Shown here: piece after piece, positions 31,671 through 47,131 of the stretch | Layout of the letters: each line of letters begins with the position of its first letter | Position numbering within the stretch: position 1 is the first letter of the stretch | Assembly (NCBI GenBank): GCA_963666835.2 | Contig: CAXXGO010000001.1 | Span: 2,048,001 to 2,112,000 of the forward strand | Reading direction: 5' to 3' | Source: Phycisphaerae bacterium | Lineage (GTDB): Bacteria; Planctomycetota; Phycisphaerae; UBA1845 | Length of the DNA: 64,000 bases | Notes under the pieces: generated by a model | The model's database searches: none | Told to the model about the DNA's origin: nothing | What the model saw: the letters and a program-made list of their open reading frames with translations, nothing else | Translations under genes and position numbers: made by a program

Positions 31671-31955
31671 GTGGTGGCAGTGGTAGCAGAGTGGTAGCAC
31701 CATCACGGCTGCTGCCACGCATCAAAACATATATATATATGCGCCAAGTCGCATTAGTGGTGGCAGTGGTAGCAGATTTCCCTTACTCAGCGAAGAAGAT
31801 AGAATCGATTTGGGCAAACCGATATCGGTAACGACAGGGAGTTTGCCGGATCTGCTGCCACTGCTGCCACGAATTCACGAAAACACTACTATAGTAGGAC
31901 AAAACGCGTGGTGGCAGATTCGACGCTGCTACCACTTGCCGTCACCTGCCATCAC
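31671..31955. other. putative replication origin of the element (iterons plus AT core)
   Basis: About 10 copies of GTGGYRGCA in both orientations (e.g. 31671, 31680, 31691, 31757, 31766, 31908 forward; 31710, 31853, 31862, 31927 reverse) around (AT)6 at 31729-31740. Confidence 0.75.
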
Positions 31956-32184
31956 ACCTTCCGATGTCTTCCTGTGATTTCCCACGTTTTCCCAAGACTT
32001 CCCACGATTTCCATACTGACCTATGGGCTCTTTGCCATCGCGGCAACTTTCCTTTATGACTGAGGTATAAGAATGACGAAGCATTAGTTGGGCAGGCGAG
32101 TAGCTCTCGCCGTAGTCGTGAGCTGGTGGAGTAACGCTCTTTCCTCCACTAGCTTGCGACTGCTCGACATAGAAGGAGCGAATA

Positions 32185-33204
32185 ATGGCGAAACGCAAAC
32201 CGAAGAAGACCGCCAAGCCGATCCGGGTCGACGTTGCCCCCCGTGATGTGCTCCGGATGTACTGTGAGCAGTTCCCGGATGCGCTCACCCGATACCAACA
32301 AGGCAAGCGATCAAACGACACCGCTCTCGATTCGCTCCGGGGCTGGCTGGATATACAACAACGTGTCGGCGGGGCAGATGACCACGTAGCCGAGTTCCGG
32401 CGCCGGTTTGAGCTTACCCAGGCGGGATACGTCCGCGCGGTCGAGTGGCTGACGACTATAATTACGACGATCGGGGAGCTCGGCGCGGAGCTCAACCTAT
32501 CCACAGACACGAAACCGGTGTACGTGCTGTTGTATGCTTTGCCGGGCGAGACGTCGGAGCACGTGACAGCGGCAGAGGGAACGGTACGCGGCTTATTGGC
32601 TGATCTCTCGGTGATAGCATCGAAGGGGAAATCCGCGGATGGTGAAGAGGGTATGACAGGCTCGGATACGGTCGAATCCAAGCAGCAGGGGGCGGTGAAC
32701 ATCCCCGATAAGGTGCAGGCCAAACCGAAAGATACGAGAACGAAAGAACAACGACTCGACGATATCAAGAGCTACATAGCCGGTCAAAAAGCTATCGAGA
32801 AGGTGGTGGGAATCGAGGACATCGCCGCTGGTGCGAATTGTAGTACGGGGTTCGTTTCACAGTCGGCACCGTGGCAAGAATACAAGGAGTCCAAGAAGGT
32901 AAGACAGAGTAAATCTGTGTGGACAACCAATTTGCTCGATCCCAATCGTGTCAATGCAGACGGAGACACCGCCCGCAGGCAGAAGCTCGGTCACGAGGCG
33001 AATGTGAACGACACCGACATGTTGATGGACATCGAGACGATTCGGGAGAAGTACCCGACATTATCTCCGCAAGAAGTCGCCCGAAAGGTCAGCGAGCTTG
33101 GCGATGAATATGAATGCACCGCCGGACATGTCGAGGCGTTCGACAATAGCCAGCGGATGAAATTCCTAACCGCCGAAACCGCTCAGCCTGTAGCCTGCTC
33201 GTGA
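32185..33204 (+). CDS. hypothetical protein with probable HTH (element regulator)
   Basis: AAGGAG RBS; IEDIAAGANCSTGFVSQS and LSPQEVARKV HTH-like segments. Confidence 0.65.
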   Translation: MAKRKPKKTAKPIRVDVAPRDVLRMYCEQFPDALTRYQQGKRSNDTALDSLRGWLDIQQRVGGADDHVAEFRRRFELTQAGYVRAVEWLTTIITTIGELGAELNLSTDTKPVYVLLYALPGETSEHVTAAEGTVRGLLADLSVIASKGKSADGEEGMTGSDTVESKQQGAVNIPDKVQAKPKDTRTKEQRLDDIKSYIAGQKAIEKVVGIEDIAAGANCSTGFVSQSAPWQEYKESKKVRQSKSVWTTNLLDPNRVNADGDTARRQKLGHEANVNDTDMLMDIETIREKYPTLSPQEVARKVSELGDEYECTAGHVEAFDNSQRMKFLTAETAQPVACS

Positions 33205-33341
33205 AATTTCATGAACTTTCACGCACACAATCCAGCCCCCAAAACGGCCATAACGACCCCGTAAAGGCCGTTCACATCTAACAACTCGTGAACACCGGGA
33301 TAGGTGAAAGCAATGTCGCTTTCCTAAACCTGGAGATTCAC
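33201..33341. promoter_or_regulatory. GTGAA/TTCAC operator-like repeats upstream of the replication operon
   Basis: Near-perfect palindrome GTGAAATTTCATGAACTTTCAC (33201-33222), plus further TTCAC/GTGAA half-sites up to the next start codon. Confidence 0.5.
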
Positions 33342-33342
33342 G

Positions 33343-33684
33343 ATGCAGAACGACGCAACGGACACACCGCCCCGGCTACTGACCACGGGGGAGATCGCCA
33401 AGCGGCTCGGCCAACGGGTTGACCGTATCGCCCGCATTCTGAGGACGAGACCACACATTCAGCCATCGGCAATGGCTGGCAACTCTCGGCTGTACGATCA
33501 TGAGTCCTACATCCTGATCTGCCGCGAGATCGCAACCATCGACGCACGGAAGACCGAGCGGAAGAGATTCATCGACAAGCTGTGCAAGGCGGCAACTGGC
33601 CCCGACCGAGCCTCTCGGCGGTTGTATTCAGACAGTGATGTGGAATTGAAGAAGCGGATGGGGCAGGAAGGCGGTGCCTCGTGA
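33343..33684 (+). CDS. MerR/Xis-like HTH protein
   Basis: LLTTGEIAKRLG...PSAMAGNSRLYD; GGAG RBS. Confidence 0.7.
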   Translation: MQNDATDTPPRLLTTGEIAKRLGQRVDRIARILRTRPHIQPSAMAGNSRLYDHESYILICREIATIDARKTERKRFIDKLCKAATGPDRASRRLYSDSDVELKKRMGQEGGAS

Positions 33685-33914
33685 AAGATCCATCCACACT
33701 CACCAGAAAAGAGATGACGGCGGCGCGGAAGGCTATACGTGAGCAGTGCCAATTGCTGAACGAAGCGGTCCTTAACGCGATGCATTGGCACGCTATGCGG
33801 CCATGTGTTGTAAGAAGGTACCTGAAGTATCTGACGGCAATTGAAGAGGAGTTCGTACGGGCTAAACCCCGAAAGGGCCCGAGGCGGAAAGGCGGCGCGG
33901 TCAATGAAGGATAA
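33681..33914 (+). CDS. small hypothetical protein (element)
   Basis: GTGA coupling with the upstream gene; overlaps the next start. Confidence 0.55.
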   Translation: MKDPSTLTRKEMTAARKAIREQCQLLNEAVLNAMHWHAMRPCVVRRYLKYLTAIEEEFVRAKPRKGPRRKGGAVNEG

Positions 33915-34383
33915 ACCCGTCATCATGATCGACCAGCGCGAGAAACTCCCGTGGAAGTTCGATAGCCCGACCGAATCTGCGTTGTTGCAGACCGCCGACT
34001 ACTCGATTCGGGGATTAGAACACCGGATCGCGATTGAGCGGAAGAGCCTTGACGACCTGCTCGGGTGTGTGGGCAGGAACCGCGAGAGGTTCACCCGTGA
34101 GCTCGAACGCCTCCAAGGTATTCAATGCCGATGCGTGGTGGTCGAGTCTAGTCTTGAGGATATCCGAGCAGGCTCATGGCGCCCGCAGATTACGCCAGCC
34201 CAGACCGTGGGCAGTATCGCTAGCTGGATGGCCAAGTTCAATGTCTGCTTCTTTCTCGCCGGCAACCGCGACTTAGCCGCAAGGTTCGCTGAGAGGTTTT
34301 TGGTCAACGCTGCCCGGACGTTGGCTTCCGAGTACGAGGCGGCTGTCGAGTTCCTCGAGGTGGCAGGAGGGCGAGATGGGTAG
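33904..34383 (+). CDS. ERCC4-domain nuclease
   Basis: IDQREKLP, ADYSI, IAIERKSLDDL, VVVE. Confidence 0.85.
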   Translation: MKDKPVIMIDQREKLPWKFDSPTESALLQTADYSIRGLEHRIAIERKSLDDLLGCVGRNRERFTRELERLQGIQCRCVVVESSLEDIRAGSWRPQITPAQTVGSIASWMAKFNVCFFLAGNRDLAARFAERFLVNAARTLASEYEAAVEFLEVAGGRDG

Positions 34384-36838
34384 TAATCAATGGCGAGAAG
34401 TCACCAAGGCTGAACCCTGCCCGATCTGCTCTCACGGCGATTGGTGCGCATTCTCGACAGACGGTTCTGCCTGCCGATGTATGCGACTGGATGCGCCATC
34501 GGCCGGATGGAAGTTCCTTCGGACTGATTCTGACGGGGGTAGTACCTTTCGGCGTACCGACGCAACCCCGACTCCGGCACCCGCGAAGCCAGACAAGCCC
34601 CGCAAGCGGCACGAGACCTTTGAGGGCGCGGTCAAAGCACTAGCTTGGAACGTTGAACGCTGTCAGAAGGAAGCCGGAAAGCGTATCGGTGCGGAGTTCG
34701 TCGCGTACTACCCATACGAGCGTCTCGACGAATCCGACAACGCAGTCGAAGTGAACCGGGAAGTCAGGTTCCTCGATCCCTCTGGCAAGAAGGAAATGAG
34801 ATGGTGTCATCAGGGCTCTGACAATCGTTGGGTGACCAAACGCGGAGATCATCGCGGCATCTTCGGGCTCGGTAATGTGCTCGCAGCACCTTCGGACACC
34901 CCGATCCTGATCGTCGAGGGCGCCAAGGTTGCTGTCCTCGCCAAGGATCTCGACCTGCTTGCGGTCACGTCTGGAGGATGCACTTCGGCTAAGCTGGTCG
35001 ACTGGTCCCCCCTCAGTGGTCGTGACGTAGTTGTCCTGCCCGATGCCGGTGAAGACGGAGCGAAGTACGCGGATGCCATACAAAGGGCACTCGCGAAGCT
35101 GAACTCTCCACCATCGGTCAAGGTTATTCGCCTGCCCGGGTTGGAGGACAGCGAGGACCTAGAAGAGTACATCGCAAACCAGCGTACCGCAGGTCTATCC
35201 GACGATGCCATCAGAGAGAAGATCGTGACGATGATTGAAGATGCCCCCAAAGCGGAACCACCAGCACCGGAGCCGGAACCGAAGAAGAAGCGTGCCGGTC
35301 CACCCATTGATGAGCAACTACTTAAGATGGTGCTTGATCGTTATGACATCCGACGTTCGATGGATGATAAGACCTTCGCCACATTGAAAGACGGCAAATC
35401 GTGCATCGTGCAGATGGTCAACACCGATCGTCGTGGGATATGCGGGGTCATGCGCAGAATGTATACCGATCGCCACGAGTATGCCAATCTGGATCAGTCG
35501 GTATTGAACAAGGTTGTTGCCACATTGGATTCACGGGGCGACGATCTAGATCGAGAGACAATCCATCTTCGTGTTGCCGATTATGGTGAGAACACATCGT
35601 ACTATGATCCGGGCTGGCGTTCGGGGCAGGCTATACAAATCGGCCCTGACGGTTGGGATGTTGTAGAGCGTCCTCCCGTATGGTTTCGACGAGCCCAGCT
35701 AACGTATCCAATGCCTGAGCCTGTGCGCGGTGGAGATCTTGATCGCCTACGTGAGCTTATCAACGTGCAGACCGATGCAGAATGGACGATGCTATTGGGA
35801 TGGTTAGTTGCATGTACGTTCGAGGTTATTGACCACCCTATTTGCTTTCTTGGCGGTCGTGCCGCCTCTGGTAAATCAACTGTAATGCACTTGATCACGA
35901 GCGCGATCGATTACCTGGGCGACGAGGATCTTGCGCCTCCAGAAGACCCACGAAGCTGGGCTGCTCTCGCCGACAATAGCTGGGTGATGCAGGCTGACAA
36001 CATATCGCATATCGATGCCGCATGGAGCAATACGTTGTGCAGCGGGGTGACTGGAGCAAGGAAACCCGACCGAGAGTTGTATACGAATACGGGGCTAGTC
36101 GTCATCGGTATGCGACGATGCATCATCCTAACGAGCATTGATGTAGGCAAGGTGCGCAGCGACTTGGCCTCCCGCCTCATGAAGATCAATCTCAAGCGAA
36201 TCGATAAGCCTCGTAAACCGAGGGTGCTGCGCGAGGCATTCAAGAGCGCTCACGGGGAGATCTTCGGCGGATTGCTCGACTTGAGCGCAAAGGTGCGAGG
36301 ACGATTGCCAAACATAACGGATACGGGATCGTTTCGTTGTGTGGACTACGCGTACATTCTCAAGGCTATTGACCAGGAACTCGGTACAACCGGGTTTGAT
36401 GCGTATGCAGCCATGCAAGCAGATTGCACACGTGCGGTGGTTGAGGATGATGTGGTGGGTGAGATGGTGGTGAAACTCGTGAGAGAGAATGGCGGGCGCT
36501 GGAGCGGGAAGATGAGAGATCTTTTTCAGATGCTGGATGGTCGCGCCGGAACGCCGAAGACACCTGCAACGCTGGGTAAGGCGATAAACCACATGGAGAA
36601 TTCGTTGGAGGCTATGGGGATTAGGTTTAAGAGTCGGCCGACTAATGATGCAAGGGTGTGGACGTTCTATGAGTTCGCATCGGATGTGGCCTCCGGAGAC
36701 GATCCCAACGTGCGGAAGTTCGCACCTGCGCCCAGCACAGACGAAGACCCATTCCCTCTGAATCCACCACCACCATCCCCGATGGAAGCGGAGGAAGTAT
36801 ATGTAGACGAGCACGGTGAGGAGTGTGGGACCATATGA
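34376..36838 (+). CDS. primase-helicase (Zn finger + TOPRIM + P-loop NTPase)
   Basis: PCPICSHGDWC..C.C, ILIVEG, VVVLPD..EDG, DLEEY (TOPRIM), GRAASGKST Walker A, DNIS, ELYTN, IILTSI, DLASR. Confidence 0.85.
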   Translation: MGSNQWREVTKAEPCPICSHGDWCAFSTDGSACRCMRLDAPSAGWKFLRTDSDGGSTFRRTDATPTPAPAKPDKPRKRHETFEGAVKALAWNVERCQKEAGKRIGAEFVAYYPYERLDESDNAVEVNREVRFLDPSGKKEMRWCHQGSDNRWVTKRGDHRGIFGLGNVLAAPSDTPILIVEGAKVAVLAKDLDLLAVTSGGCTSAKLVDWSPLSGRDVVVLPDAGEDGAKYADAIQRALAKLNSPPSVKVIRLPGLEDSEDLEEYIANQRTAGLSDDAIREKIVTMIEDAPKAEPPAPEPEPKKKRAGPPIDEQLLKMVLDRYDIRRSMDDKTFATLKDGKSCIVQMVNTDRRGICGVMRRMYTDRHEYANLDQSVLNKVVATLDSRGDDLDRETIHLRVADYGENTSYYDPGWRSGQAIQIGPDGWDVVERPPVWFRRAQLTYPMPEPVRGGDLDRLRELINVQTDAEWTMLLGWLVACTFEVIDHPICFLGGRAASGKSTVMHLITSAIDYLGDEDLAPPEDPRSWAALADNSWVMQADNISHIDAAWSNTLCSGVTGARKPDRELYTNTGLVVIGMRRCIILTSIDVGKVRSDLASRLMKINLKRIDKPRKPRVLREAFKSAHGEIFGGLLDLSAKVRGRLPNITDTGSFRCVDYAYILKAIDQELGTTGFDAYAAMQADCTRAVVEDDVVGEMVVKLVRENGGRWSGKMRDLFQMLDGRAGTPKTPATLGKAINHMENSLEAMGIRFKSRPTNDARVWTFYEFASDVASGDDPNVRKFAPAPSTDEDPFPLNPPPPSPMEAEEVYVDEHGEECGTI

Positions 36839-37206
36839 CAGCAACAACACGACAGACATGCATGGTACTCGCAGAGCTTCGTCAGAAGGACATCGAGCTA
36901 TTCATCGGGGATGGGGAATTGCGGTACGTTCCTCGACAGGCAATGACAACGGAACTCCACGCGAGACTACAGGCCCATCGAGATGCCATTTTAACGGCAT
37001 TGTCTGACCCGTGCGATACGGCCTTGGCGATAGTCGACGATGTACTTGAGCGTGAGGGTTTTGACGCTGCTCTCGATCTTGGCGAGCACTTCGAGGAACG
37101 CGCAGCCGTGCGGGAGTTCGAGGGCGATGTCTCGCGAGAGCGGGCCGAATGCGGGGCGTTGCTGGATACTTGCTATCGGCTGAATGGTAGGGGGGTGGCA
37201 GAATGA
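36835..37206 (+). CDS. small primase-associated protein (TubC-N-like N-terminus, FEERAA motif)
   Basis: ATGA overlap with the primase gene; LAELRQKDIELFIGDGELRY...LQAHRDAILTAL; FEERAAVREFEGDVSRERAE. Confidence 0.7.
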   Translation: MTATTRQTCMVLAELRQKDIELFIGDGELRYVPRQAMTTELHARLQAHRDAILTALSDPCDTALAIVDDVLEREGFDAALDLGEHFEERAAVREFEGDVSRERAECGALLDTCYRLNGRGVAE

Positions 37207-37499
37207 GTGACGCGCCACTAACCGCGCAGCAGGTCGCCGAGTATCTTCAATGCTCCGTGCAGCACGTGCGCAAACTCTGCCAGTGTGGGGCGCTCAAGTG
37301 TTCCCGCCTGCCCTCGCCGATCTCCGGCAAGATTGGACCGAAGGCTGAGTACCGGATCAGACAATCGGCGGTTGAGGAGATGTTGGGCATTGAGCCTATC
37401 AGAAAGCCTCGACGAAAGACCCTTACTCCTGCTCAGCGACGCCGGGCGCGGTCGGAATTAGAGTTGGCAAAGTCTCTGCTGCGCGCTGGAGCTGGGTAG
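37203..37499 (+). CDS. excisionase-like HTH DNA-binding protein
   Basis: LTAQQVAEYLQCSVQHVRKLCQCGALK...YRIRQSAVEE; adjacent to the integrase. Confidence 0.8.
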   Translation: MSDAPLTAQQVAEYLQCSVQHVRKLCQCGALKCSRLPSPISGKIGPKAEYRIRQSAVEEMLGIEPIRKPRRKTLTPAQRRRARSELELAKSLLRAGAG

Positions 37500-38430
37500 A
37501 CCGGACTTGGGCGTACACTTGGACCATCTTCAGGTCGACATGCCCGAGCAGTTTCGCCACCACCTCAATAGGCGTACCGGCCTCCAACCACGTTTGAGCT
37601 GCAGTATGCCTGAGCGTGTACACCCCGCGAATACCATGCCGAGAGAGCGATCGAGACAGCGATCTACGCTTCCACGGTCCTCCTCGGCAATTGTGAAAGA
37701 CAAGCTCGCCCGGTGAGTGTGGTTCGGGGATTGACTCTAGAACCTCCATCGCTTGGGGTGGCAAGTAGATCGTGCGCGGTCGTCTGGTCTTGGCTGCGGT
37801 CTTGTGCTGATCGAGTACGCAAACCCGTTTCTCCATCCGGACCTGCTCCCATGTCAAAGAGATTGCCTCACTGGGACGGCAGCCGGTCGTGAGAATGAAC
37901 GTGGCGACTCGTTTAATCGTCGGGTTCAGGGTTGACCATGCCTTGGCGATGTTCTCCGGGCTCTCGTCGCGTGGATGCAGGATCTCTTTACGATGAGGTG
38001 CAGAATCGGGTGGCTTATCAATCCAGCCCTGAGCCGCAGCCCAACGACAGACGACCCTCGCCGTAGATGTGTAACGGTTGATCGTGCTGGGCTTGAGGTC
38101 CCGCGTATCGAGGTAATCACCGTAGGCGTGAAGGACAAGCGGATCGTGGAGAATGTCGAAGGGCGCATCTGTTGCGAAGTCCTCAACCCATCGGCCAGCC
38201 GCCCGGGCTAAGTTGTGGTTGGGTTTGGCCTCCTGGCACCATCGCCGATAGAGTTCAGCAATCGAGCTAGGAGCGCCCGCACGTCGCCCCAGACCACCGA
38301 GAATCTCTCCGGCCCGCTTGTATGCGACGGCCATGTCGGTCCCGAGGTGATGATCCTTGCCGCCGACCCGTAACCTGAAGTACGGATTTCGCCCCTTCTT
38401 CCGGATGCACTGAACTGTCGGTTCTCGCAT
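37423..38430 (-). CDS. tyrosine recombinase/integrase
   Basis: TGCRPSEA (R), HKT (K), YTLRHTAA, LLGH...QVYA (H, Y); small N-terminal beta arm-binding-like domain. Confidence 0.93.
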   Translation of the reverse strand: MREPTVQCIRKKGRNPYFRLRVGGKDHHLGTDMAVAYKRAGEILGGLGRRAGAPSSIAELYRRWCQEAKPNHNLARAAGRWVEDFATDAPFDILHDPLVLHAYGDYLDTRDLKPSTINRYTSTARVVCRWAAAQGWIDKPPDSAPHRKEILHPRDESPENIAKAWSTLNPTIKRVATFILTTGCRPSEAISLTWEQVRMEKRVCVLDQHKTAAKTRRPRTIYLPPQAMEVLESIPEPHSPGELVFHNCRGGPWKRRSLSRSLSRHGIRGVYTLRHTAAQTWLEAGTPIEVVAKLLGHVDLKMVQVYAQVRSTQLQRAAETLPTLIPTAPGVAEQE

Positions 38431-38447
38431 AATTCGCCTCCCTGCTA

Positions 38448-38513
38448 GCGCCCCCTCGAACCCTTCTTACGGCATCTTAAACGCGGTTGCGATTAGGTCA
38501 AGAGGGGGCGCTC
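38448..38513. promoter_or_regulatory. right arm-type sites overlapping the integrase promoter
   Basis: GCGCCCCCTC at 38448 and AAGAGGGGGCGCTC at 38500 (exact reverse complement of 22293-22306). Minus-strand TTGACC-N16-TAAGAT (38501-38474). Confidence 0.6.
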
Positions 38514-38565
38514 GAAACGAGCAAACCACTATAATATAGGCACGAAACGCAATCCGTACCCCTTC

Positions 38566-38633
38566 TTATCAAAAATGGCGACAAGATCCGCGTCAAGGTC
38601 GAAAACCGCGAATACCAGGGCAAAGAGCACTGA
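38566..38633 (+). repeat. attR: displaced original 3' end of efp (..IKNGDKIRVKVENREYQGKEH*)
   Basis: Direct repeat of 22204-22268 followed by TGA. Confidence 0.95.
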
Positions 38634-38805
38634 CGCCGGCCCGTACTCCGATCGTCTGCCCGCTGCTTGTGTCCGGCTCAGGGTTCATCCGCGGTTACCG
38701 TTGCCCCAATCCAGCGCCTGCCTTTACCCGGCTCGCTTCATTTGCGCCCTCCGGCGTCCGATAGAAACAGGAGAGTAGGTACGTACCGAGGGTCTTCGAG
38801 GCGAA

Positions 38806-39123
38806 ATGTCCGTACACGGCGGCCAACAACAGGATTCCGGATTCGACAAGACCACCGATCCCGCAGGTGGAGGGGCAGGGGCTCTGCCCTCGCGCCGCGC
38901 GATAGTAACCGGCGGGGTGAAGTTGGCTTTCGTTGCTCCGGTTCTGTCGACCTTCTTCGCCAGTCAGGCTTACGCCGCTAATTACAGTTGCTATCCGCTC
39001 GGGCACACGTGTGACACGGTCAGCGAGGGGAAACGGCAGCAGTGTTGCGGCGCGCTTACGTGCAAGGGACCTGATACGATTCCGGTTGATCCGGGCGATG
39101 TCGACGGTACGTGCCAGCCGTAA
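38806..39123 (+). CDS. putative RiPP precursor: RR/FxxPxL leader plus 6-Cys knottin-like core
   Basis: SRRAIVTGGVKLAFVAPVLSTFFASQAYA|ANYS-C-x6-C-x10-CC-x4-C-x16-C-QP; first gene of the PqqD/kinase operon. Confidence 0.75.
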   Translation: MSVHGGQQQDSGFDKTTDPAGGGAGALPSRRAIVTGGVKLAFVAPVLSTFFASQAYAANYSCYPLGHTCDTVSEGKRQQCCGALTCKGPDTIPVDPGDVDGTCQP

Positions 39124-39205
39124 GGTCCGGTTGAGATTCCGGCAGGCTCTTGGTTGGGCCTGGAATGGAGCTCGCCGGAGAGACTGGATCCAAGGAAGGG
39201 TTGCC

Positions 39206-40531
39206 ATGTCCTCGGCAGCATCAGGGCGGACGGCTACGTTGTTCATAATCGCTTGTGCGCTGGGCGGGGCAGGCGTGTCCGGGACGCTGCTCAAGGCGCA
39301 CGACGGCGGTTGGCAGATCGCCAGCCGGGACGGCGTCGGTCTTATTCAGTATTGCAACGCTCAGATTATTCCCAACGCCGATTGCCCGCAGGTCATGGGC
39401 AGCCGCTGGGGGTCCTTCGATGCCCGGATCGGCTCACACCGAGTGTTGGTTCCCACCTCACTGATCGGCTTGGCGTACTTCGTTGCCGTGGCCGTCTGGT
39501 TTGGGATGGTCAGTCCCGGTGGGGTCCGGGGCGGTTGGACCTGGCCGATTACAATCCTCGCAGTGGCGGCAGGGCTCGCCGGATCGTTGTTTCTCGTGGT
39601 CATCATGGCGGTGTCGGTGAGTCGATGGTGCCCCCTTTGCGTGGTCGCACATCTGTTGAACGGGGCGATTGTCATAGCGACTTTGTGGTTGTGGCGACGC
39701 ACCAGGCGTAGTCCCGATTGCAGCGTGCCGGTTGTTCCGGGGATGATTCGTCTTCGCCGCCGGCTGGCGTGGTCTGCCGCAACAGTGGCTCTGGGGGCGG
39801 CCGTGGGATTCTGGCTCTACTTCGATGCGGTGACTGAAGCCCGTCGACAATGGCGAAAGTACACTCATTTGAAGCAAGCGGTAACCGCCCTGCAGGACGA
39901 CCCGCAACTCACGCTTCGGGCGTTCTATGCTCAAGAGGTCGTCGAAGACCTATGGGACGATCGAAACGCTGATTCGGAATGGGGGGTGAGTACGCTCCGT
40001 CCGCGGCTTACGGTGTTCACGGACTACGATTGTGGCCCCTGCGCATGCTTCGAGAGTACCCGCGAGCGGGTGATCAGCGTGGCCTTTACGGACGGCGTGG
40101 ATCTCCAGGTACGCTACTGCCCTGAAACCACCGGGACGGGGCGGGCAGACGTGTCGACTTTGGCGGCGAGCTGCGCCGCGGAAGCGGCTCGGCGCCAAGG
40201 CGGATCGGACGCGCAGCTACGCATGCATCGGTTGCTGTTCATTCACCGCCAGGCTGGTCCGCAACGAGACTACGCCGACTTGGCCCGGCAGGCCGGCCTT
40301 GACGTTGACCGATTCCTGGAAGATTGGCAAAGCGAGCCGGTGCGGGAGGCGGTTCTGAGCGATATTGGTCTGGCGAACTCTCTGAAGGTCTCCGCCCCGG
40401 CCGTGTTCCTCGAAGGTCGGCGCGTGCCGGACTTGTGCGTTGAGAGCCCGACCTTCTGGGAGGCGGTTTCGGCTGAGCTGGCCAAGGAACGGGTCGCGGC
40501 CTCGTCCGAGATCGGGGAGGAGCTGCGATGA
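39206..40531 (+). CDS. VKOR-DsbA/thioredoxin fusion (disulfide-bond formation)
   Basis: YC..x..DCPQVMGSRW loop cysteines, TM helices, WCPLCVVAH (VKOR CxxC); FTDYDCGPC and SAPAVFLEG (DsbA). AAGGAAGG RBS. Confidence 0.88.
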   Translation: MSSAASGRTATLFIIACALGGAGVSGTLLKAHDGGWQIASRDGVGLIQYCNAQIIPNADCPQVMGSRWGSFDARIGSHRVLVPTSLIGLAYFVAVAVWFGMVSPGGVRGGWTWPITILAVAAGLAGSLFLVVIMAVSVSRWCPLCVVAHLLNGAIVIATLWLWRRTRRSPDCSVPVVPGMIRLRRRLAWSAATVALGAAVGFWLYFDAVTEARRQWRKYTHLKQAVTALQDDPQLTLRAFYAQEVVEDLWDDRNADSEWGVSTLRPRLTVFTDYDCGPCACFESTRERVISVAFTDGVDLQVRYCPETTGTGRADVSTLAASCAAEAARRQGGSDAQLRMHRLLFIHRQAGPQRDYADLARQAGLDVDRFLEDWQSEPVREAVLSDIGLANSLKVSAPAVFLEGRRVPDLCVESPTFWEAVSAELAKERVAASSEIGEELR

Positions 40532-40860
40532 CTGACGCGGTCAACGGCGATGGTGTGCGTCTTTCGCCGGCCGTCTGCTCCGAGTCCGGCAGTCAAGCGC
40601 GCCTCGTCCGGAGAACGGATGTCACCGTCTATGAGCTGGACGGAGAGGGGCTGGTCTTCGACGCCACCCGCGGTGACACGCATCGTCTGAACGCGACGGC
40701 TATGGCGATTTGGCGCGAATGTGACGGCCGGCAGGATGCAGCGCAGATTGCCGAACGCCTTACGGATTCTTATGACGTTTCTATGGCAGCGGCTGTTGAG
40801 CATGTGGAGAGGCTTCTTCGAGAGTTTCAGGAACGGCGGCTGGTTTACACGGCGTTTTGA
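40528..40860 (+). CDS. PqqD family protein (RiPP recognition element)
   Basis: YELDGEGLVFD...THRLNATAMAIWRECDG...IAERLTDSYDV...VERLLREF..RRLV; ATGA coupling. Confidence 0.9.
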   Translation: MTDAVNGDGVRLSPAVCSESGSQARLVRRTDVTVYELDGEGLVFDATRGDTHRLNATAMAIWRECDGRQDAAQIAERLTDSYDVSMAAAVEHVERLLREFQERRLVYTAF

Positions 40861-40872
40861 CACAGGGACCGG

Positions 40873-41781
40873 ATGCTTAGCATGGCCCGGGATGACAGGC
40901 AAGACGTGATGCACTTTCAGATCGGCGAGGTAGCGATGTCGCTGCGGACGCCGCTCCGGTCGTTACGCAGTCAGTATCTTGCTCTGTATGAAGACTTCCG
41001 GGTCCCGCAGCGGGCACGCAACTCCATTCGCATCGAGGTTCGCCCCTCGCAGCGGTCCTTACGCCATCGGCGGTGCTACCGGGTCTATGTGGACGGGCGA
41101 TTGCGGTTCGAGCCGACCCGGTTCAAGGAACTGCTGCCCTACGTGGAGTGGGCGGTCAACTGGGAGTTAGCCCGGGTCATGCCGCAGTTTCTGCAACTCC
41201 ACGCCTCCTCCATGGAGATTAACGGGCAGGGCGTGATTCTGCCGGGGGCGTCGGGTAGCGGAAAGTCCACCCTGACTACCGGACTGATTGCCGACGGATG
41301 GCGATATCTCTGTGATGAATTCGCGTTGATTCATTCGGGCACCCTGGAGCTTCACCCGTTTCCCCGGGCGATTTGTGTCAAGAAGCCGGCATTTTCCGTG
41401 ATGGAGTCCCTCGGGTTTCACCTGCAGAAAGCCCGGCATTACCACAAGGGGACCAAGGGCGATGTAGTTTTTCTGAATCCGTTGAATCTGCGGCCCAATG
41501 GGATCGGACGCACCTGCCCGGTACGATATGTCGTCTTTCCGCGCTACGCCGCTGGAGCGGAACCGGCGCTGGTGCCCATCAGCCGGGCGGAGGCGGCCCT
41601 CGACATGCACCACGTCTGCTTCAACCTCTTCGGGTGCCGGACGCTCGGCGTGGAGGTTCTGGCGAAGCTGGTACGGGGGGCTTCCTGTTATCGACTTATC
41701 AGTGGAGAGATTGGCAAGACCTGTCGTTTGCTCCGCGGAATGGTCGAACAGGCGGCCCAACCGCAGGCTCTAAGCGCGTAA
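40873..41781 (+). CDS. HprK-related kinase
   Basis: LQLHAS...GVILPGASGSGKSTL...GWRYLCDEFALI...HPFPRAI. Confidence 0.85.
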   Translation: MLSMARDDRQDVMHFQIGEVAMSLRTPLRSLRSQYLALYEDFRVPQRARNSIRIEVRPSQRSLRHRRCYRVYVDGRLRFEPTRFKELLPYVEWAVNWELARVMPQFLQLHASSMEINGQGVILPGASGSGKSTLTTGLIADGWRYLCDEFALIHSGTLELHPFPRAICVKKPAFSVMESLGFHLQKARHYHKGTKGDVVFLNPLNLRPNGIGRTCPVRYVVFPRYAAGAEPALVPISRAEAALDMHHVCFNLFGCRTLGVEVLAKLVRGASCYRLISGEIGKTCRLLRGMVEQAAQPQALSA

Positions 41782-41816
41782 GGTCGCGATCGAGGGGAGA
41801 CGCCCTTGGCGGAGCG

Positions 41817-42995
41817 ATGGAGGACTTGATGGACCATAGTGGAATCCAACTTGCCCCCTGGTTGAACGCTGCCGGTCCGCCGCGTGCCGCTGTCGAGTGG
41901 ATGGAACCAGTCGAAGTGGCCTGCGAATCCGGGCTTGCCGGGTTGCTCTTGGAACACGTTTCGCGACACGGGCTCGAACCTCCGGCAGATGCCGCCGAGA
42001 CCCTGCGCCGCGCGGCTGCGTCAGTCGCGCAAAACAACATCCACCTGCACGACGAGCTGGCTGACGTGGTTCAGGCTTTCAACCGGGCGAAGGTCCCCGT
42101 GATGCTCCTCAAAGGGGCAGCCCTCAATCATACGATCTACCCCCGATATAACCTCCGTCCGATGAGCGATCTCGACTTGCTCGTCCACCCGGATTCGGCG
42201 GAAGAGGCCGTGCAGTTGCTTGCCGATCACGGTTGTCCGCGCGGATTCGATCTCGTCCGCGACGATTTCTTCCCGAAATACCACAACGAGGTCGAGTTGC
42301 TGACGGGCTCGCCCAATCCCGCCCGGATCGATCTGCACGCGCGACCGCTACGCCCACTACGAATCTCGCAGACAATGCCGGACGACGCTCTGTGGGAAGA
42401 CGCTCAACCGGTTCATATCGGAGACGGTAAGGCGTGGATCCCCCGTCCGGAGTTAAACTGCCTCCACTTGGCGGCCCACGCGGCTTATCATGGCTGTTCC
42501 CGGTTGATCTGGCTATATGATCTTCTCAGGCTTCACGAAGCGTACGGCAGTGTCATGGATTGGGGTCTGTTGGTCGATCGGGCTCGGGAATGGAAGCTGT
42601 CGTGGCCGGTCCTTTTCGCCCTGCGTCGCGCGGGCGAGCTCCTCGGCGAAGTCTGTCCGCCAGGGGTAATCGAGAAGCTGGAGGGACATCCGATCGGCTG
42701 GCGCGACCGGTTGGCTCTAGTTCACGCTCCACGGGACGCCGCCGCCCCGATCTCTCATCTCGTAGTAGATCTGCTCTGTACGCCCGGGATTCGCTTCCGG
42801 ATAGGGTACGCCTCGTCCTTTGTGCTGCCCGGAGGTAAGCATCTGGCCGGGATCTACCCCTTCCGGCACCGGGGATGGAAGGCGGTTGCGCACCTCTGGC
42901 GGTGTCTTCGAGCCGCAGGCCGGGCTGTGGCGGGGCTGGCGAGCGCGCCGGCCGCTCTGCTGCGTCGAGGCAGCTTCCGGTTGGCGTCTCCGTAA
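41817..42995 (+). CDS. nucleotidyltransferase family protein (NTP_transf_5-like)
   Basis: MLLKGAAL, YP...RPMSDLDLLV, IDLH, HLAAHA, LIWLYDL. Confidence 0.87.
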   Translation: MEDLMDHSGIQLAPWLNAAGPPRAAVEWMEPVEVACESGLAGLLLEHVSRHGLEPPADAAETLRRAAASVAQNNIHLHDELADVVQAFNRAKVPVMLLKGAALNHTIYPRYNLRPMSDLDLLVHPDSAEEAVQLLADHGCPRGFDLVRDDFFPKYHNEVELLTGSPNPARIDLHARPLRPLRISQTMPDDALWEDAQPVHIGDGKAWIPRPELNCLHLAAHAAYHGCSRLIWLYDLLRLHEAYGSVMDWGLLVDRAREWKLSWPVLFALRRAGELLGEVCPPGVIEKLEGHPIGWRDRLALVHAPRDAAAPISHLVVDLLCTPGIRFRIGYASSFVLPGGKHLAGIYPFRHRGWKAVAHLWRCLRAAGRAVAGLASAPAALLRRGSFRLASP

Positions 42996-43132
42996 CCACC
43001 CAGCCCGATAATCACCTGGATTGGACCGCACAAGCCGCCGATATCAGCGGCAGTTGGTGCCGTGTACGGATCACCGTACCCGGACCGACCTGACCCGGGA
43101 TTCAGGCTCTGTCGGACTGTGGCGGAACAGCG

Positions 43133-44140
43133 ATGACGCGTTGGCATCAACACACGGTGGCCGTCGTGATGACCGTGAAGAACGATCCCGCGGGTTGTGC
43201 CGTGACCCTTGGTTCGCTGGTAACCCAGACACGCCGCCCGGACGAGATAATCGTAGTAGACGGCGGGTCGACCGACGATACCGTGCGTTTGGTTCGGCAG
43301 TACCAGGGCAGCCTGCCACAATTGCGGGTTATTGACGCTCCCGGGGCCAACATCGCTCGCGGGCGAAACATCGGGGTCGAGGCGGCAGAGTCAGAGATTG
43401 TGGCCACGACCGATTGCGGATGTCGGGCGGATTCGAAGTGGCTGGAGGAGTTGCTGCGACCTTTCCAGGAGGATCCCGGCACGGAATTCGTGGCGGGTTT
43501 CTATCGAATCGAAGCCCACAGCCTTCTGGAAGAGGTTGTGGGGTTGGCGACGATGCGCGGGCAGTTGGACCCGGTCGACCCGGACAAGTTCAACCCGTCG
43601 GCTCGGTCGATGGCGCTGACCAAAGCGTTGTGGACCAGGGCGGGGGGCTGGCCGGAGTGGATCTCGTTTTCCGAAGACACCCTCCTGGATCACAAGATAA
43701 GGCAGATGGACGTCGGGTGGGCTTTCGCCGGAGATGCGGTGGTACGCTGGCGTCCGCGCCGGTCGCTTCCGGCAATTGCCCGCCAGTTTCATAATTACGG
43801 CACCGGGCGGGGGCACACGCAGATTGATGCCGCGGGCTATCTTTACGACGTTCGGAACGGCCTGCTCTTTGCGGGGACGGCGGTTGCCAGCCTGTGGACG
43901 GTGTGGGCGCTGCCGCTTCTTGTCGCGATTTTTGGCTATTTCTATGTTTGGGCGTTTCACCACAAGGCGATGCGTGTGGCCCGCCGGGCCGGACGCTGGC
44001 CGGCATACCCGCTTTGCCTCTGCGTTATGTGGGTGATCATTGCGGTGAACATCACCGGGTTCCTGGCGGGTTCCTGGCAGAGGCAACGGGATCAGGGTCG
44101 ATACCGGCGTCGGCTCGAGGCATACCTGGCCGGCCCCTGA
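43133..44140 (+). CDS. GT2 family glycosyltransferase with C-terminal TM helices
   Basis: QTRRPDEIIVVDGGSTDDT, NIARGRN, TTDCGC, GGWPE...SEDT. Confidence 0.88.
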   Translation: MTRWHQHTVAVVMTVKNDPAGCAVTLGSLVTQTRRPDEIIVVDGGSTDDTVRLVRQYQGSLPQLRVIDAPGANIARGRNIGVEAAESEIVATTDCGCRADSKWLEELLRPFQEDPGTEFVAGFYRIEAHSLLEEVVGLATMRGQLDPVDPDKFNPSARSMALTKALWTRAGGWPEWISFSEDTLLDHKIRQMDVGWAFAGDAVVRWRPRRSLPAIARQFHNYGTGRGHTQIDAAGYLYDVRNGLLFAGTAVASLWTVWALPLLVAIFGYFYVWAFHHKAMRVARRAGRWPAYPLCLCVMWVIIAVNITGFLAGSWQRQRDQGRYRRRLEAYLAGP

Positions 44141-44305
44141 GACTCCGTCCCCGCTTACCAAGGGAGGATCGAGGGGCGTCGATTCGGGAGCTGCAGAGTT
44201 TTCCGGGGTTTTCAACAAGAACGCCCGTAGTGACTTAGAAAAGTGCCCGACGCCGACAATGGAGCGGCCTATCCAGTGAATCGAAACCAGCCAACCCGCT
44301 CCACG

Positions 44306-45745
44306 ATGAGGCGACGCTGGCTGTGTGTCGCCTACGCTTTCCCTCCGATCAATCGAAGCGGAACGCACCGCACCTTGGGCTTCGTGAGGCACCTGGATTC
44401 GCTTGGGTGGGACGCCACCGTGCTAACCGTGGATCCAGGGGATGAGCCGGTTGATGCTGGTCTCCTTGACCGGGTCCCCGAGTCGACCGAGGTCATTCAA
44501 TCGCTGTGGACGGACCTTATCGCCCAGGCAAAACGGATGTTGTGCCTCGGGCGTTCTCAAGAGAGAGCGAGTGATTTTCCCCGCGACGCCGCGCGTTACG
44601 ACCAAACCGTCATCAGCGGAACCGCCCGCGATGGAAAGCCGGGCGGGGTGAAGGAGTGGGTGTCCCGTTTGTTGATTACTCCGGATTCCCGGCTTGGTTG
44701 GCTCGGTCCGGCAACACGCCGGGGTATGGCCGCAATTCGCCGACGGCGCCCCGAGGTGATCTACTCGACCTCACCGTATATGACGGCTCATCTGATCGCG
44801 GCGCGACTTGCCCGCCGAACGGGCGTCCCCTGGGTTGCGGATTTTCGAGATCCGTGGTGCGACAACCCGTTCCGCAGTCTAGGCTTCACGAGTCTTCGGC
44901 GATGGGATGAATGGTTGGAGCGTCGGACCCTTCGCCGCGCCGCTCATGTAGTATGCACGACCTCGACCATGCGGGATCGATTTGCGGAGCGACTGCCGTT
45001 CGTGCGCGAAAAGTCCAGCGTCATCACCAACGGGTTCGACGCAGAGCTGTTGACCGGCCTTACGCCGACACGCGTTGCGCCGGTGGAAGATCTGGTCCTG
45101 ACCCACTGTGGACAGTTCTACGGGCCGCGTCGCCCGCAGGTGTGGTTCGATGCCCTAAGACGGGTGCTGGACCAACCTTCGGATCGACCGCGGAGAATCC
45201 ACTTGCAGTTGCTCGGACCGGATTCGTACGAGGGCCGGCCGCTGATGGAACTGGCCGCGGACGCGGGAGTCGCCGAGCATGTTCACGTGTCGGGCTCCAA
45301 GAGCCATCGGGAGGCTCTATCGCACATGGCCGGCAGTGACGTGTTGCTGCTGGCCGGATCGTCGGGCGTCGGTAGCGATCTGCAGGTGCCCAACAAACTG
45401 TTCGAGTACCTTGCCGTGCGCCGGCCGATTATCGCCGCGGTTTCCGCAAACAGCCCGGTCGTTGGGATCCTCCGCGAAGCCGGGGCGGAGGCGTCTGTCT
45501 GCGATCCGGAAGATGCACTCGGTATTGCCGAAGCGATCGAGAACCTCTCCGAATCGCATAGTCCGGACCCCGCGCAAGCATGGGATGGCGTTTCCCGGTT
45601 CGACCGCGCCAATCGAGCGCGCGAGCTGGCTGCGATCTTTCAGCACGTATCCCAGTCGAAGATCCTCGGACGGACATCGCGGATTGCCGCCGCCGACCAC
45701 AAGTGCCAAGGCGTAGACACCGCCCGCGGCTACGCCCACGGATAG
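44306..45745 (+). CDS. GT4 family glycosyltransferase
   Basis: AYAFPP, GWDATVLT, PDSRLGW, PWVADFRDPW, ITNGFD, VPNKLFEYL. Alternative GTG start at 44243. Confidence 0.88.
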   Translation: MRRRWLCVAYAFPPINRSGTHRTLGFVRHLDSLGWDATVLTVDPGDEPVDAGLLDRVPESTEVIQSLWTDLIAQAKRMLCLGRSQERASDFPRDAARYDQTVISGTARDGKPGGVKEWVSRLLITPDSRLGWLGPATRRGMAAIRRRRPEVIYSTSPYMTAHLIAARLARRTGVPWVADFRDPWCDNPFRSLGFTSLRRWDEWLERRTLRRAAHVVCTTSTMRDRFAERLPFVREKSSVITNGFDAELLTGLTPTRVAPVEDLVLTHCGQFYGPRRPQVWFDALRRVLDQPSDRPRRIHLQLLGPDSYEGRPLMELAADAGVAEHVHVSGSKSHREALSHMAGSDVLLLAGSSGVGSDLQVPNKLFEYLAVRRPIIAAVSANSPVVGILREAGAEASVCDPEDALGIAEAIENLSESHSPDPAQAWDGVSRFDRANRARELAAIFQHVSQSKILGRTSRIAAADHKCQGVDTARGYAHG

Positions 45746-45796
45746 AGGCTCGCGAGTTCGCCCCCTCGATCCGGTGGGTGCCGCCCGCCAGCGCTA

Positions 45797-47131
45797 TTAT
45801 CCGCGTATCACCCAGCGAAGCATCTGGGCGAAGTTCGCCCCTTTACCCTGCATCAGAATCCCGACCCGGAAGATCCGGCCGGCGGCGAAGACGCAGACGA
45901 TTGTGGTTAGTAGGACCAGCACGATTCCCACGACCGGCTGCCACAGCGGGACCCCGGGCGGCACCGCCTGCCGGATGGTCATCAGCATGGGCGTGGCGGG
46001 CGGAATCAGCGACAGAATAACCGACAGCGGGGCGGTCGGCTCGCGTACGACGAAGATCCAGCAGAACAACGGCATGGCCACGACGATCATCACCGGCATC
46101 AGAGCGCTCTGAGATTCCTTCATGTCCGAGACCGCCGCGCCGATTGCTACGAAAACGGAGCCGAACATCAGCACCGCCAGAGCAAGGAACGTGACGAACC
46201 AGATCACCAAGTGCGAGGGGAAGTACTCCTCGAAGCCGGCGTGTCGGATTGCGAAGTACGCCCCGAACAGGTAAATGACCGCGAGCGTCAGCGATACTCC
46301 GACCATACCGATCAGCTTGCCCATCATGAGCTGGAACGGCGGGATCGATCCAAGGAGGACTTCGGCGATCCGCTGCATCTTCTCTTCGAGCACGCTGTGA
46401 ACCAGTGGGGTGGCGCCAATGTTGATGATCATGAACATCAGCATCATCATACCCATGGGTATGAATATGTTGGCCAGCTCGTTAGTCTCGGTCGCCTTGG
46501 TGATGTTCCCCTCCTTGTCGACCGACACCAGGCCGAGGTTGGCAATCGACATCCACTTCGTAGCTTTCTTGACCACTTCCTGGTCGAGCCCGGCCTTGGC
46601 GAAGCGGAGTTCCTTGATCCGATTGTTGATGGGAAAGCCTACCCAACGCTGAAAATCGTCACTGGTGGGACTGTTTGAATGGTAATCAATCGACTGACGC
46701 GAGTCACCGTCTTTCGGGGTAATTACGTCGGGCTCTATAATGACGAACGCGAATAGTTCGCCGTCGCGGACCCGATTAGACAGATTCAGCTTAACCCGCT
46801 CCGGGTCGTCCGCGGTGGGGGCGATTCGTTCTATGACGAAGCGGGGCATGACTTGCTTACGCTTTCCGTTCTTCGTTTCGTAGATCCCCTGGTCTTTGAT
46901 ATCCTGCTCGTTGCGCTCGTTGGACGCCTCGACAATCGCGTCGAACAGCTCTCCAGTGTGGTCCACGATGGCTACATGCCGGTCGGAGATGTCGCGTTTG
47001 TCCTCCAGAATGGTCTGGGCAATCAGTACGCCGCACATCAGAATGGGCATGGCGATCATGCTAATGACAAAGGCCTTCGTTCTGACAGCGGCTTGATACT
47101 CGCGGACGGCGACGACGATCATCTTACGCAT
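45797..47131 (-). CDS. ABC-2 type transporter permease (NatB-like)
   Basis: VAVREY..VRTKAF, VLEEKMQRIAEVLL, LMMGKLIG, SLIPP..PMLM, RIFRVGILMQGK. Confidence 0.88.
   Translation of the reverse strand: MRKMIVVAVREYQAAVRTKAFVISMIAMPILMCGVLIAQTILEDKRDISDRHVAIVDHTGELFDAIVEASNERNEQDIKDQGIYETKNGKRKQVMPRFVIERIAPTADDPERVKLNLSNRVRDGELFAFVIIEPDVITPKDGDSRQSIDYHSNSPTSDDFQRWVGFPINNRIKELRFAKAGLDQEVVKKATKWMSIANLGLVSVDKEGNITKATETNELANIFIPMGMMMLMFMIINIGATPLVHSVLEEKMQRIAEVLLGSIPPFQLMMGKLIGMVGVSLTLAVIYLFGAYFAIRHAGFEEYFPSHLVIWFVTFLALAVLMFGSVFVAIGAAVSDMKESQSALMPVMIVVAMPLFCWIFVVREPTAPLSVILSLIPPATPMLMTIRQAVPPGVPLWQPVVGIVLVLLTTIVCVFAAGRIFRVGILMQGKGANFAQMLRWVIRG

Follow-up and report, generated by a model that had tools for sequence, protein, structure and literature searches.

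In a small six-cysteine peptide, a strictly conserved twin-arginine-type signal likely doubles as a docking tag for neighboring PqqD and kinase genes

Can one short leader both recruit tailoring enzymes to a peptide and direct the export of that peptide? This question is raised by a gene cluster in a 64,000-nucleotide stretch of DNA from a Phycisphaerae bacterium (GenBank assembly GCA_963666835.2, contig CAXXGO010000001.1, positions 2,048,001 to 2,112,000 of the forward strand; referred to as the window, with its own numbering). The precursor gene of this cluster (38806-39123, plus strand) encodes 105 residues, consisting of a variable N-region, a conserved leader and a six-cysteine core, and its translation reads MSVHGG...ALPSRRAIVTGGVKLAFVAPVLSTFFASQAYAANYSCYP.... 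An original prediction, made from the letters alone, proposed that 38890-38976 is a dual-purpose leader, in which a twin-arginine signal and an AxA cleavage site overlap a motif bound by the recognition element (RRE) for peptides that are made on ribosomes and modified after translation (RiPPs). The comparisons described here indicate that this segment is a strictly conserved twin-arginine-type signal, and that it is likely also a docking tag for the PqqD and kinase genes of the cluster. The observations bearing on this are those of sequence, conservation, gene linkage, natural fusions and PqqD homology, and by such comparison the putative dual role of the leader is well supported.

A leader conserved as protein

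Codon arithmetic places the predicted segment exactly: S29 starts at 38890, A57 ends at 38976, the string in between is SRRAIVTGGVKLAFVAPVLSTFFASQAYA, and A58 follows. The leader S29-A57 thus delimited comprises SRR, a short basic stretch, a 13-residue hydrophobic stretch and AYA, and is recognizable by its conservation and by the variety of its codons. Ahead of it lies the variable N-region (M1-P28, 38806-38889). R30-R31 (38893-38898), the twin arginine, stands at -28/-27 relative to the predicted cleavage point and is part of a sequence of the form S-R-R-x-hydrophobic-hydrophobic-(R/K). The interval from 38806 to the arginine codons, read from the sequence, lacks an in-frame ATG, GTG or TTG, and the protein containing the twin arginine must therefore start at 38806. 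An alternative start, the GTG at 38917 (giving MKLAF...), was rejected because the twin arginine and the residues following it are conserved as protein. The precursor has no Pfam or NCBIfam family match. Over 38400-39300, a promoter scan yielded a single promoter-like site, on the minus strand, and a terminator scan a single terminator-like one, which lies in coding sequence; neither exceeds the expectation from shuffled sequence.

Homologs were assembled from a word-index search (18 sequences) and from a scan of one genome per species (21 genomic loci, all from metagenome-assembled genomes (MAGs) titled Phycisphaerae, Planctomycetota or "uncultured bacterium"). A profile built on 36 precursors and run against 1.84 billion representatives found 186 representative clusters at E ≤0.001 and 63 at ≤1e-10; in 401 genomes of the phylum a precursor profile gave just two extra matches, both weak. 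Across 35 homologs, leader residues 29-57 have a median identity of 72% to the window precursor (range 59-100%), the six-cysteine core one of 35%, and residues 1-28 one of 11%, whereas the neighboring enzymes are 34-61% identical across loci. Measured by identity, the leader segment is the most conserved part of the whole cluster. R30, R31, G37, F42, A44, P45, S48, T49 and A57 are invariant in all 36 aligned precursors, and in 20 DNA loci these residues are written with varied synonymous codons, with R30 using all six Arg codons and S48 both TCN and AGC. Therefore, selection acts on the protein. For a typical signal peptide, general properties suffice in the hydrophobic core; the level of conservation found in this one demands a further constraint.

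The geometry of the leader is also fixed across the family. In 146 of the 164 family proteins analyzed, the leader can be found with a loose pattern, although this pattern itself required a basic pair, a Pro and a Ser/Thr at P+3 to P+5, so that these features are not independent counts. The basic pair is RR in 145 of the 146 and KR in the remaining one, the spacing from RR to Pro is 13 or 14 residues in 139, Gly is found at P-8 in 104, and Lys/Arg at P-6 in 125. T/S occupies P+4 in 144/146, a position within the range where the selecting pattern demanded S/T. Ala is present at P+7 (131/146), P+10, which is -3 (129/146), and P+12, which is -1 (131/146). The AxA motif thus ends 12 residues past the Pro, in the variants AYA, AMA, AFA, ARA and ACA. 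By comparison, what surrounds the leader varies: 6 to 329 residues precede the twin arginine, and the linker between AxA and the first Cys differs in length and sequence. In the 6.0 Mb genome of the window, read in six frames, a stricter pattern (RR, 13-14 residues, P, 3 residues, S/T, xxAxxAxA) has five matches, and only the precursor at 38806 precedes a family-like six-cysteine core; the other four are read as off-frame noise. Neither homology nor strict-pattern scans revealed a second precursor in this genome.

The predicted docking motif and its putative PqqD partner

The recognition half of the original prediction concerned FVAPVL (F42-V-A-P45-V-L47, 38929-38946). These residues belong to a conserved [F/Y]xxPx[L/I/V] motif at -16/-13/-11, with Phe/Tyr at P-3 in 111/146 and V/I/L at P+2 in 140/146 pattern-matched proteins. 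The closest characterized counterpart is found in the linear polyphosphorylated peptides (LPP, lppA-K-B-S-D-N) of Bacillota, which the main text of Popov et al. (Nat Commun 2026, PMC13381572) calls restricted to that phylum. The register is the same as that of Y-16, P-13 and V-11 in LppA, and on the grounds of family conservation and of this register F42-L47 is the predicted RRE docking site. According to the same text, it is these three residues that LppB contacts in the crystal of the LppB-LppA leader complex (9X8Z), where residues -12 to -7 form an intermolecular sheet.

A candidate partner is encoded where the original prediction had placed it: the gene at 40528-40860 (plus strand) is a PqqD-type RiPP recognition element (PF05402, 53.3 bits; TIGR04353, 43.1 bits with a cut-off of 35). 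A profile of 13 local PqqD proteins, compared to solved structures, matched TfuB1 (1.8e-7), LppB (9X8Z_B, 2.3e-6), PqqD (7.8e-5) and TbiB1 (1.2e-4). P0115, a family protein in which PqqD, leader and core are naturally fused, was folded with AlphaFold2 (AF2). Its RRE domain is modeled with confidence (predicted local distance difference test, pLDDT, 86-95) and superposes on leader-bound TbiB1 with a template modeling (TM) score of 0.81-0.84 and a root-mean-square deviation of 1.7-1.8 Å. In this model, leader residues P+2 to P+6 (-11 to -7) form a beta strand, at a low pLDDT of 58-65. The partner of that strand would be the RRE sheet, since all strands other than those of this sheet are already paired within the Cys-rich core.

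Gene linkage, natural fusions and variant loci

Among the 21 loci, PqqD and the HprK-like kinase adjoin the precursor in 12, including three without VKOR-DsbA (L007, L008, L015), and a VKOR-DsbA homolog lies directly 3' of the precursor in ten. Of the remaining loci, L016 ends before the PqqD/kinase region, and eight hold the precursor alone; two of these eight are from MAGs that also have the full cluster, and two reach the contig end.

In 31 of the 164 family proteins, including P0075, P0078, P0082, P0091, P0113, P0115 and P0130, a PqqD domain is found N-terminal of the leader, connected by linkers of 11-55 residues. A further locus, L027 (9560-10321), encodes a PqqD-linker-leader-core fusion likewise and is additional to these 31. 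In three of the 164 proteins (P0083, P0123, P0150), a complete HprK_rel_A domain precedes the leader and Cys-rich core. P0083 and P0123 score 183 and 173 bits with TIGR04352, P0150 matches the window kinase with a BLASTP E-value of 3.2e-68, and one of the three occurs on two contigs; P0087 and P0107 are fragments of kinase fusions. These HprK-leader-core proteins would be enzyme-substrate fusions. They are reminiscent of the borosin type, in which the precursors are self-modifying.

A sample of the phylum contained three other genomes with HprK_rel_A above the TIGR04352 cut-off (L062, L063, L064; 361-389 bits). In each, a small open reading frame (ORF) lies immediately upstream of PqqD-kinase-NTP_transf_5, and its leader has the form RRx..GVPxxxTx..xA: RRAFLRTSVVVGVPLIITFSSRSAWA in L064 (6396-6635, plus strand), RRRIIKRAALLGVPIILTLHGTAFA in L062 (8462-8665, minus strand) and RRRNLLKRSVVLGVPLLLTLPGKSFA in L063 (6821-7078, plus strand). 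The cores that follow are Cys-free and rich in Ser, Thr, Pro and Gly. A variant cluster in L061 (5042-9065, minus strand) combines NTP_transf_5, a precursor, a radical SAM/SPASM enzyme, PqqD and the HprK-like kinase, and its precursor carries the leader SRRKFLKRIVYTAPVIMTFVASRAHA (SRRKFLK...YTAPVI...AHA) on a core of CxxxC repeats. No NCBIfam model reports for any precursor tested, including that of the L061 locus. As judged from these sequences, the candidate substrates have nothing in common but the leader, be their cores six-Cys, Ser/Thr-rich or CxxxC-repeat.

These loci bear on the possibility that the leader is an ordinary, lineage-conserved signal for twin-arginine translocation (Tat) and nothing more, with PqqD binding elsewhere, such as the core start NYSCYPxGH, or with the cassette acting on some other substrate. 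Conservation does extend past the predicted cut (S61, C62, Y63 and H67), and the leader of the fusion model is of low confidence, both of which would fit this alternative. It would, however, leave several things unaccounted for, namely that one type of leader accompanies PqqD and HprK on unrelated cores, that PqqD is fused directly before the leader in 31 proteins, and that the motif has the register of LppA; nor would the hydrophobic core of such a signal be expected to exceed the neighboring enzymes in conservation. An ordinary Tat signal is thus distinctly unlikely to be the whole explanation.

The predicted export signal and the probable route across the membrane

The export half of the original prediction, a twin arginine followed by a hydrophobic stretch and AxA, holds up in comparison: the pattern is conserved family-wide (of the 146 proteins, 145 have RR, 129 have A at -3 and 131 have it at -1), and TatA, TatC and signal peptidase I are encoded in the genome. 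TatC scores 127.6 bits and TatA 50 bits, the signal peptidase I gene lies about 340 kb from the cluster, and TatC was found in all five other system-bearing genomes tested. The Tat-type motif of the window is SRRAIVT and the family pattern is [S/T]RRx[V/I/L][V/L/M][R/K], as in SRRELMRKG and QRREVLKKG, with a perfect SRRKFLK in L061. This post-RR pattern matches the Tat consensus as stated in the abstract of a paper on the chaperone NapD (PMC3712460). The hydrophobic stretch, LAFVAPVLSTFFA, is followed by SQAYA, of which A55-Y-A57 (38968-38976) is the predicted signal peptidase I site on the basis of family conservation, with the cut after A57. The variable linker beyond AxA is as expected for such a site.

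The original prediction had left a puzzle, in that Tat normally carries folded cargo, while the VKOR-DsbA protein of the cluster would oxidize the core after export. This is not a contradiction, as small unstructured hydrophilic peptides can pass Tat. Moreover, the Tat pathway, being post-translational and tolerant of bulky cargo, would suit a peptide that is decorated in the cytoplasm first.

Alternatively, the leader might dock the RRE while export proceeds through the general secretory (Sec) pathway, with the twin arginine retained because it is recognized by PqqD, by the kinase or by some other partner, or because it acts as a positive-inside determinant. The mean hydropathy of LAFVAPVLSTFFA is about 2.05 (Kyte-Doolittle), compatible with Sec or Tat, the Pfam TAT_signal model does not report, and a cargo that is oxidized after export by VKOR-DsbA suits unfolded transport. 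There is also a precedent in the bufferin precursors, which use Sec signals (main text of PMC12452194). Sec signals, however, accept Lys, whereas this family has RR in 145 of 146 cases and KR in one, and the post-RR residues follow the Tat consensus, up to the SRRKFLK of L061. Furthermore, a cytoplasmic domain of 100-300 residues ahead of a hydrophobic stretch of 13 residues would make a poor Sec signal-anchor. Export by Sec is therefore considered unlikely, and Tat remains the preferred route.

It is very improbable that the leader is an uncleaved membrane anchor, with the N-terminus inside and the Cys-rich domain tethered outside. An RR on the cytoplasmic side fits the positive-inside rule, and the fused forms would be anchored in this way before any cleavage. 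Nevertheless, the uncharged hydrophobic stretch has a length of just 13 residues, the L027 fusion shows no membrane helix when scanned with a 19-residue hydropathy window, and AxA stands at a fixed distance in about 130 of the 146 proteins, followed by a variable linker.

As a separate observation, the genome of L027 has a tatC gene (around 4960-5517, minus strand) about 4 kb from its PqqD-precursor gene, in divergent orientation, which may be coincidence.

The six-cysteine core and its predicted oxidase

The core (A58-P105, 38977-39120) has six cysteines in the order C-C-CC-C-C (C62, C69, C80, C81, C86 and C103) and is described as knottin-like on the basis of Cys conservation and the AF2 model. 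In the 36 aligned precursors C62, C69, C80, C86 and C103 are invariant, and C81 is present in at least 90%. S61, directly before the first Cys, is likewise invariant, and C62, Y63 and H67 after the cut are also conserved. The core is modeled with a pLDDT of 72-84 over residues 61-90. A Foldseek search with the model of the stand-alone precursor returned 41 matches, mostly knottins, none of which had E ≤0.001 (best E 0.52). Weak Pfam matches of family members are to Toxin_12, Toxin_35, Conotoxin and UPF0506.

The predicted oxidase for this core is the VKOR-DsbA fusion encoded at 39206-40531 (plus strand), with five predicted membrane helices and a periplasmic thioredoxin-like domain with CGPC (PF07884, 54 bits; PF01323, 29.9 bits; hydropathy). 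Its TGA overlaps the ATG of PqqD (ATGA), and the two genes are translationally coupled. A six-cysteine core in an operon with a periplasmic oxidase argues that the core crosses the membrane. The knottin-like six-cysteine core and the translationally coupled VKOR-DsbA are particular to the window and its Phycisphaerae relatives.

Several family proteins (P0017, P0018, P0030, P0046, P0061, P0064, P0083) have tandem double C-C-CC-C-C units behind one leader. In addition, an N-x-S just before the first Cys is frequent, though not invariant (NYS at 38980-38988 in the window; NHS, NLS and NNS elsewhere). In view of the two glycosyltransferases of the cluster, this might be a sequon for glycosylation, or else mere context for the invariant Ser.

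Proposed mechanism and the points against it

From these observations we infer the binding and the modification chemistry, as well as the route of export and the site of cleavage. By docking on F42-L47, PqqD would cover much of the hydrophobic part of the signal, and this docking would hold the precursor in the cytoplasm, as NapD does for the Tat signal of NapA. The HprK-like kinase would then add a phosphate to a Ser close to where the core begins. S61, the fourth residue of the core, is a candidate phospho-acceptor, by analogy with Ser3 of LppA and BsfA. The phosphate would be extended by the NTP_transf_5 enzyme, perhaps also by the two glycosyltransferases. Once released, the leader would engage TatBC, housekeeping signal peptidase I would cut after A57, and in the periplasm the VKOR-DsbA of the operon would introduce three disulfides, giving a knottin-like product.

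Such a route could do without a protease or an exporter of its own. The original prediction had taken the signal peptidase to explain why no protease is in the cluster, and Pfam and NCBIfam scans of the genes from 38806 to 45745 indeed find no peptidase family, and no exporter family either. Similarly, 27 flanking ORFs examined in the window and at L012, L013 and L018 include no peptidase family, and the only transport-related matches among them are HlyD-type and SecA-type proteins (L012, about 7-9 kb upstream) and an ABC-2 permease (window).

Several findings weigh against this account or are not explained by it. On the recognition side, the strand in the P0115 model is of low confidence, and in the AF2 model of the stand-alone precursor the leader is coil (pLDDT 52-56). 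This subfamily carries Phe where LPP and lasso leaders carry Tyr or Trp, which is outside the published Y/W set. According to the main text of PMC13381572, the Tyr hydroxyl of LppA is engaged in a hydrogen bond, and binding is weaker with Y-16A. For the Bsf lasso system, passages of PMC10368454 report that phosphorylation persisted when Y, P and L were replaced by Ala. The invariant S48-T49 (38947-38952; -10/-9), within the hydrophobic stretch, has no counterpart in the LPP consensus. The kinase matches TIGR04352 over profile positions 2-278 of 280 but falls below the 200-bit cut-off. A further difficulty concerns the placement of PqqD. Three loci (L014:4060-5943, L018:10257-12128 and L020:2750-4630) have VKOR-DsbA and PqqD in one open frame of 623-627 residues; the linker between the two is acidic, rich in Pro and about 100 residues long, and has no predicted membrane helix. 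Length differences between the three loci keep the frame, and a Met is retained at the usual PqqD start. If these are single chains, their PqqD would reside in the periplasm, at odds with the PqqD-leader fusions, which imply that it is cytoplasmic.

On the export side, Pfam TAT_signal (PF10518) and TIGR01409 give no report for eight precursors at E up to 10, which is weak evidence as these models are short and the HMMER filters drop weak matches. The conserved Lys/Arg (K39) interrupts the post-RR region and leaves a hydrophobic stretch of only 13 residues. The RR segment, which in the window has 28 residues ahead of S29, is internal in the 31 PqqD fusions, the three full HprK fusions and the two fragments. 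Tat signals are normally N-terminal, so that the 31 PqqD and five kinase fusions would speak against a Tat function; Tat signals with N-terminal extensions can nevertheless still function, through a loop mechanism.

With these points taken into account, the full dual-role mechanism, a Tat/signal peptidase I leader that also carries a PqqD docking motif at -16/-13/-11, is on balance the probable reading of the sequences. A wider proposal, which we offer more tentatively as a possibility, is that the family represents a class of Gram-negative ribosomal peptides (at least 186 clusters) that use a twin-arginine signal as RiPP leader. In this class PqqD would be both recruiter and Tat proofreading chaperone, masking the signal until the peptide is tailored; Tat and signal peptidase I would replace a dedicated exporter and peptidase; and the product of the window would be a phospho-(glyco)sylated knottin oxidized by VKOR-DsbA.

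Relation to known systems

The window cassette of PqqD, HprK-like kinase and NTP_transf_5 is an HPr-rel-A cassette (TIGR04352, TIGR04353), and its nearest known counterparts are the linear polyphosphorylated peptides of Popov et al. The PqqD of the window passes TIGR04353 (43.1 versus 35), the kinase matches its model end to end and the genes are adjacent. The differences from HPr-rel-A as modeled are the kinase score (189.3, below 200) and a precursor family with a twin-arginine leader tied to the cassette.

The likeness to LPP, as far as the main text of PMC13381572 describes that system, includes a discrete PqqD-type RRE, an HprK-like kinase and an uncharacterized nucleoside triphosphate transferase in both, as well as a conserved N-terminal leader with variable C-termini and an aromatic-xx-P-x-V/L motif at -16/-13/-11. 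LPP clusters are often located in polysaccharide loci, and glycosyltransferase surroundings are found here as well; in both cases the leader would be removed by an enzyme of the signal-peptidase type, which in the window is a prediction. In contrast, the window cluster has neither an LppS-type peptidase resembling signal peptidase I nor the MsbA-like exporter LppD, and has RR and AxA in the leader instead. The LPP consensus YxxPxVLxHQxIxFETxxS is shared only as [F/Y]xxPx[V/L/I], the rest here being STFFAxxAxA, and the window subfamily has Phe for Tyr and a six-Cys knottin-like core with its own VKOR-DsbA. The relatives of the window system are from MAGs titled Phycisphaerae or Planctomycetota, whereas LPP are from Bacillota. 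Because two defining features fail, the dedicated peptidase and the exporter, the window cassette is not filed as a member of LPP. The main text of PMC13381572 contains no word beginning with "Tat", "twin-arginine" or "signal peptide".

The original prediction had framed the leader in terms of lasso peptides. Of this frame, the YxxPxL-type motif stands, as does the kinship of PqqD, which most resembles lasso B1 proteins and LppB; the lasso itself does not, as the genes from 38806 to 45745 include no macrolactam cyclase (C) and no B2 protease, and a lasso peptide was rejected on these grounds. Lasso B1 proteins are the best structural and sequence relatives of the local PqqD. Passages in the review PMC9266682 and in PMC10368454 describe phosphorylated or phosphoglycosylated lasso systems (paeninodin PadeK, ThcoK, pseudomycoidin PsmK/PsmN, BsfK), in which a B1-type RRE, an HprK-like kinase and a nucleotidyltransferase likewise act on a precursor with a YxxPxL leader motif. 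According to PMC10368454, their motif is at -17/-14/-12, one residue farther from the cut than here. Unlike lasso leaders, that of the window is without Thr at -2 and has signal-peptide features.

A precedent for a cytoplasmic protein on a twin-arginine signal is NapD, which, according to the abstract of PMC3712460, binds the Tat signal peptide of NapA through an epitope that overlaps the RR motif as a helix. In both systems, functions of chaperone binding and transport would overlap in one segment. NapD, however, is not an RRE, and the site predicted here lies in the hydrophobic stretch, as a beta strand; binding by NapD serves cofactor loading, whereas the purpose here would be peptide tailoring.

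The bufferins and other MNIO RiPPs resemble the present family in having a general export signal as leader and Cys-rich cores. Their Sec signal is suspected to be part of enzyme recognition, and a partner is suspected to mask the signal until the peptide is modified (main text of PMC12452194). They differ in using Sec signals and an MNIO enzyme with a DUF2063 partner, as opposed to PqqD, kinase and nucleotidyltransferase, and the word "Tat" is absent from that main text. With knottins the core shares the C-C-CC-C-C spacing, and the Foldseek list was dominated by them, although none was significant; the bacterial origin and the attached tailoring cassette set it apart. In the literature covered, namely freely accessible papers and, for PMC13381572, the main text, neither the use of a twin-arginine signal as RiPP leader nor any precursor for HPr-rel-A was found described, and RRE-Finder (PMC7470986) and a 2025 RRE survey (PMC12710340) contain no passage on HPr kinase or Tat.

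If the dual role is true, one segment of 29 residues does the work of enzyme recruitment, export targeting and leader removal, for which other RiPP pathways use separate parts. It would name the missing substrate of the HPr-rel-A system, of which the NCBIfam models cover the chaperone and the kinase only. The pathway of peptide modification that was first reported in 2026 would thereby gain a Gram-negative variant, and LPP chemistry, so far known from Bacillota alone, would be extended to bacteria of the Planctomycetota type, in which the logic of export differs. The dual role would also stand as a second, Tat-based case beside the Sec-dependent bufferins, with the same question of how premature export is prevented. 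In practice, the fixed spacing of the leader, with P 13-14 residues after RR and AxA ending 12 residues past P, offers a simple handle for mining, as no curated family model detects these precursors, and the natural PqqD-leader-core fusions are ready-made constructs for structural work.

The rest of the cluster and its surroundings

Downstream of PqqD, and on the same plus strand, the cluster continues with the HprK-related kinase A-like protein (40873-41781; TIGR04352, 189.3 bits with a cut-off of 200) and the NTP_transf_5 nucleotidyltransferase (41817-42995; PF14907, 180.1 bits), the predicted start of which is the ATG of MEDLMDH. A GT2 glycosyltransferase (43133-44140, plus strand; PF00535, 72.6 bits) and a GT4 glycosyltransferase (44243-45745, plus strand; PF13579, PF13439) follow, each co-linear in 8 of the 21 loci. 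The hydrophobic C-terminal stretch of the GT2 protein is read as membrane helices, as its sequence suggests.

Directly after the GT4 gene, on the minus strand, lies the ABC-2 family permease (45797-47131). Farther on come genes for a protein with a metallo-beta-lactamase fold (48846-49589) and for a phosphatase of the SpoIIE type (51113-52312, minus strand).

No tRNA was found in 30000-48000. Directly upstream of the cluster is a tyrosine integrase (37423-38430, minus strand), and two further translations, read by eye, look primase/helicase-like (34376-36838) and DNA-binding (37203-37499). The region 33841-38430 of the window is likely a mobile element inserted beside the cluster.

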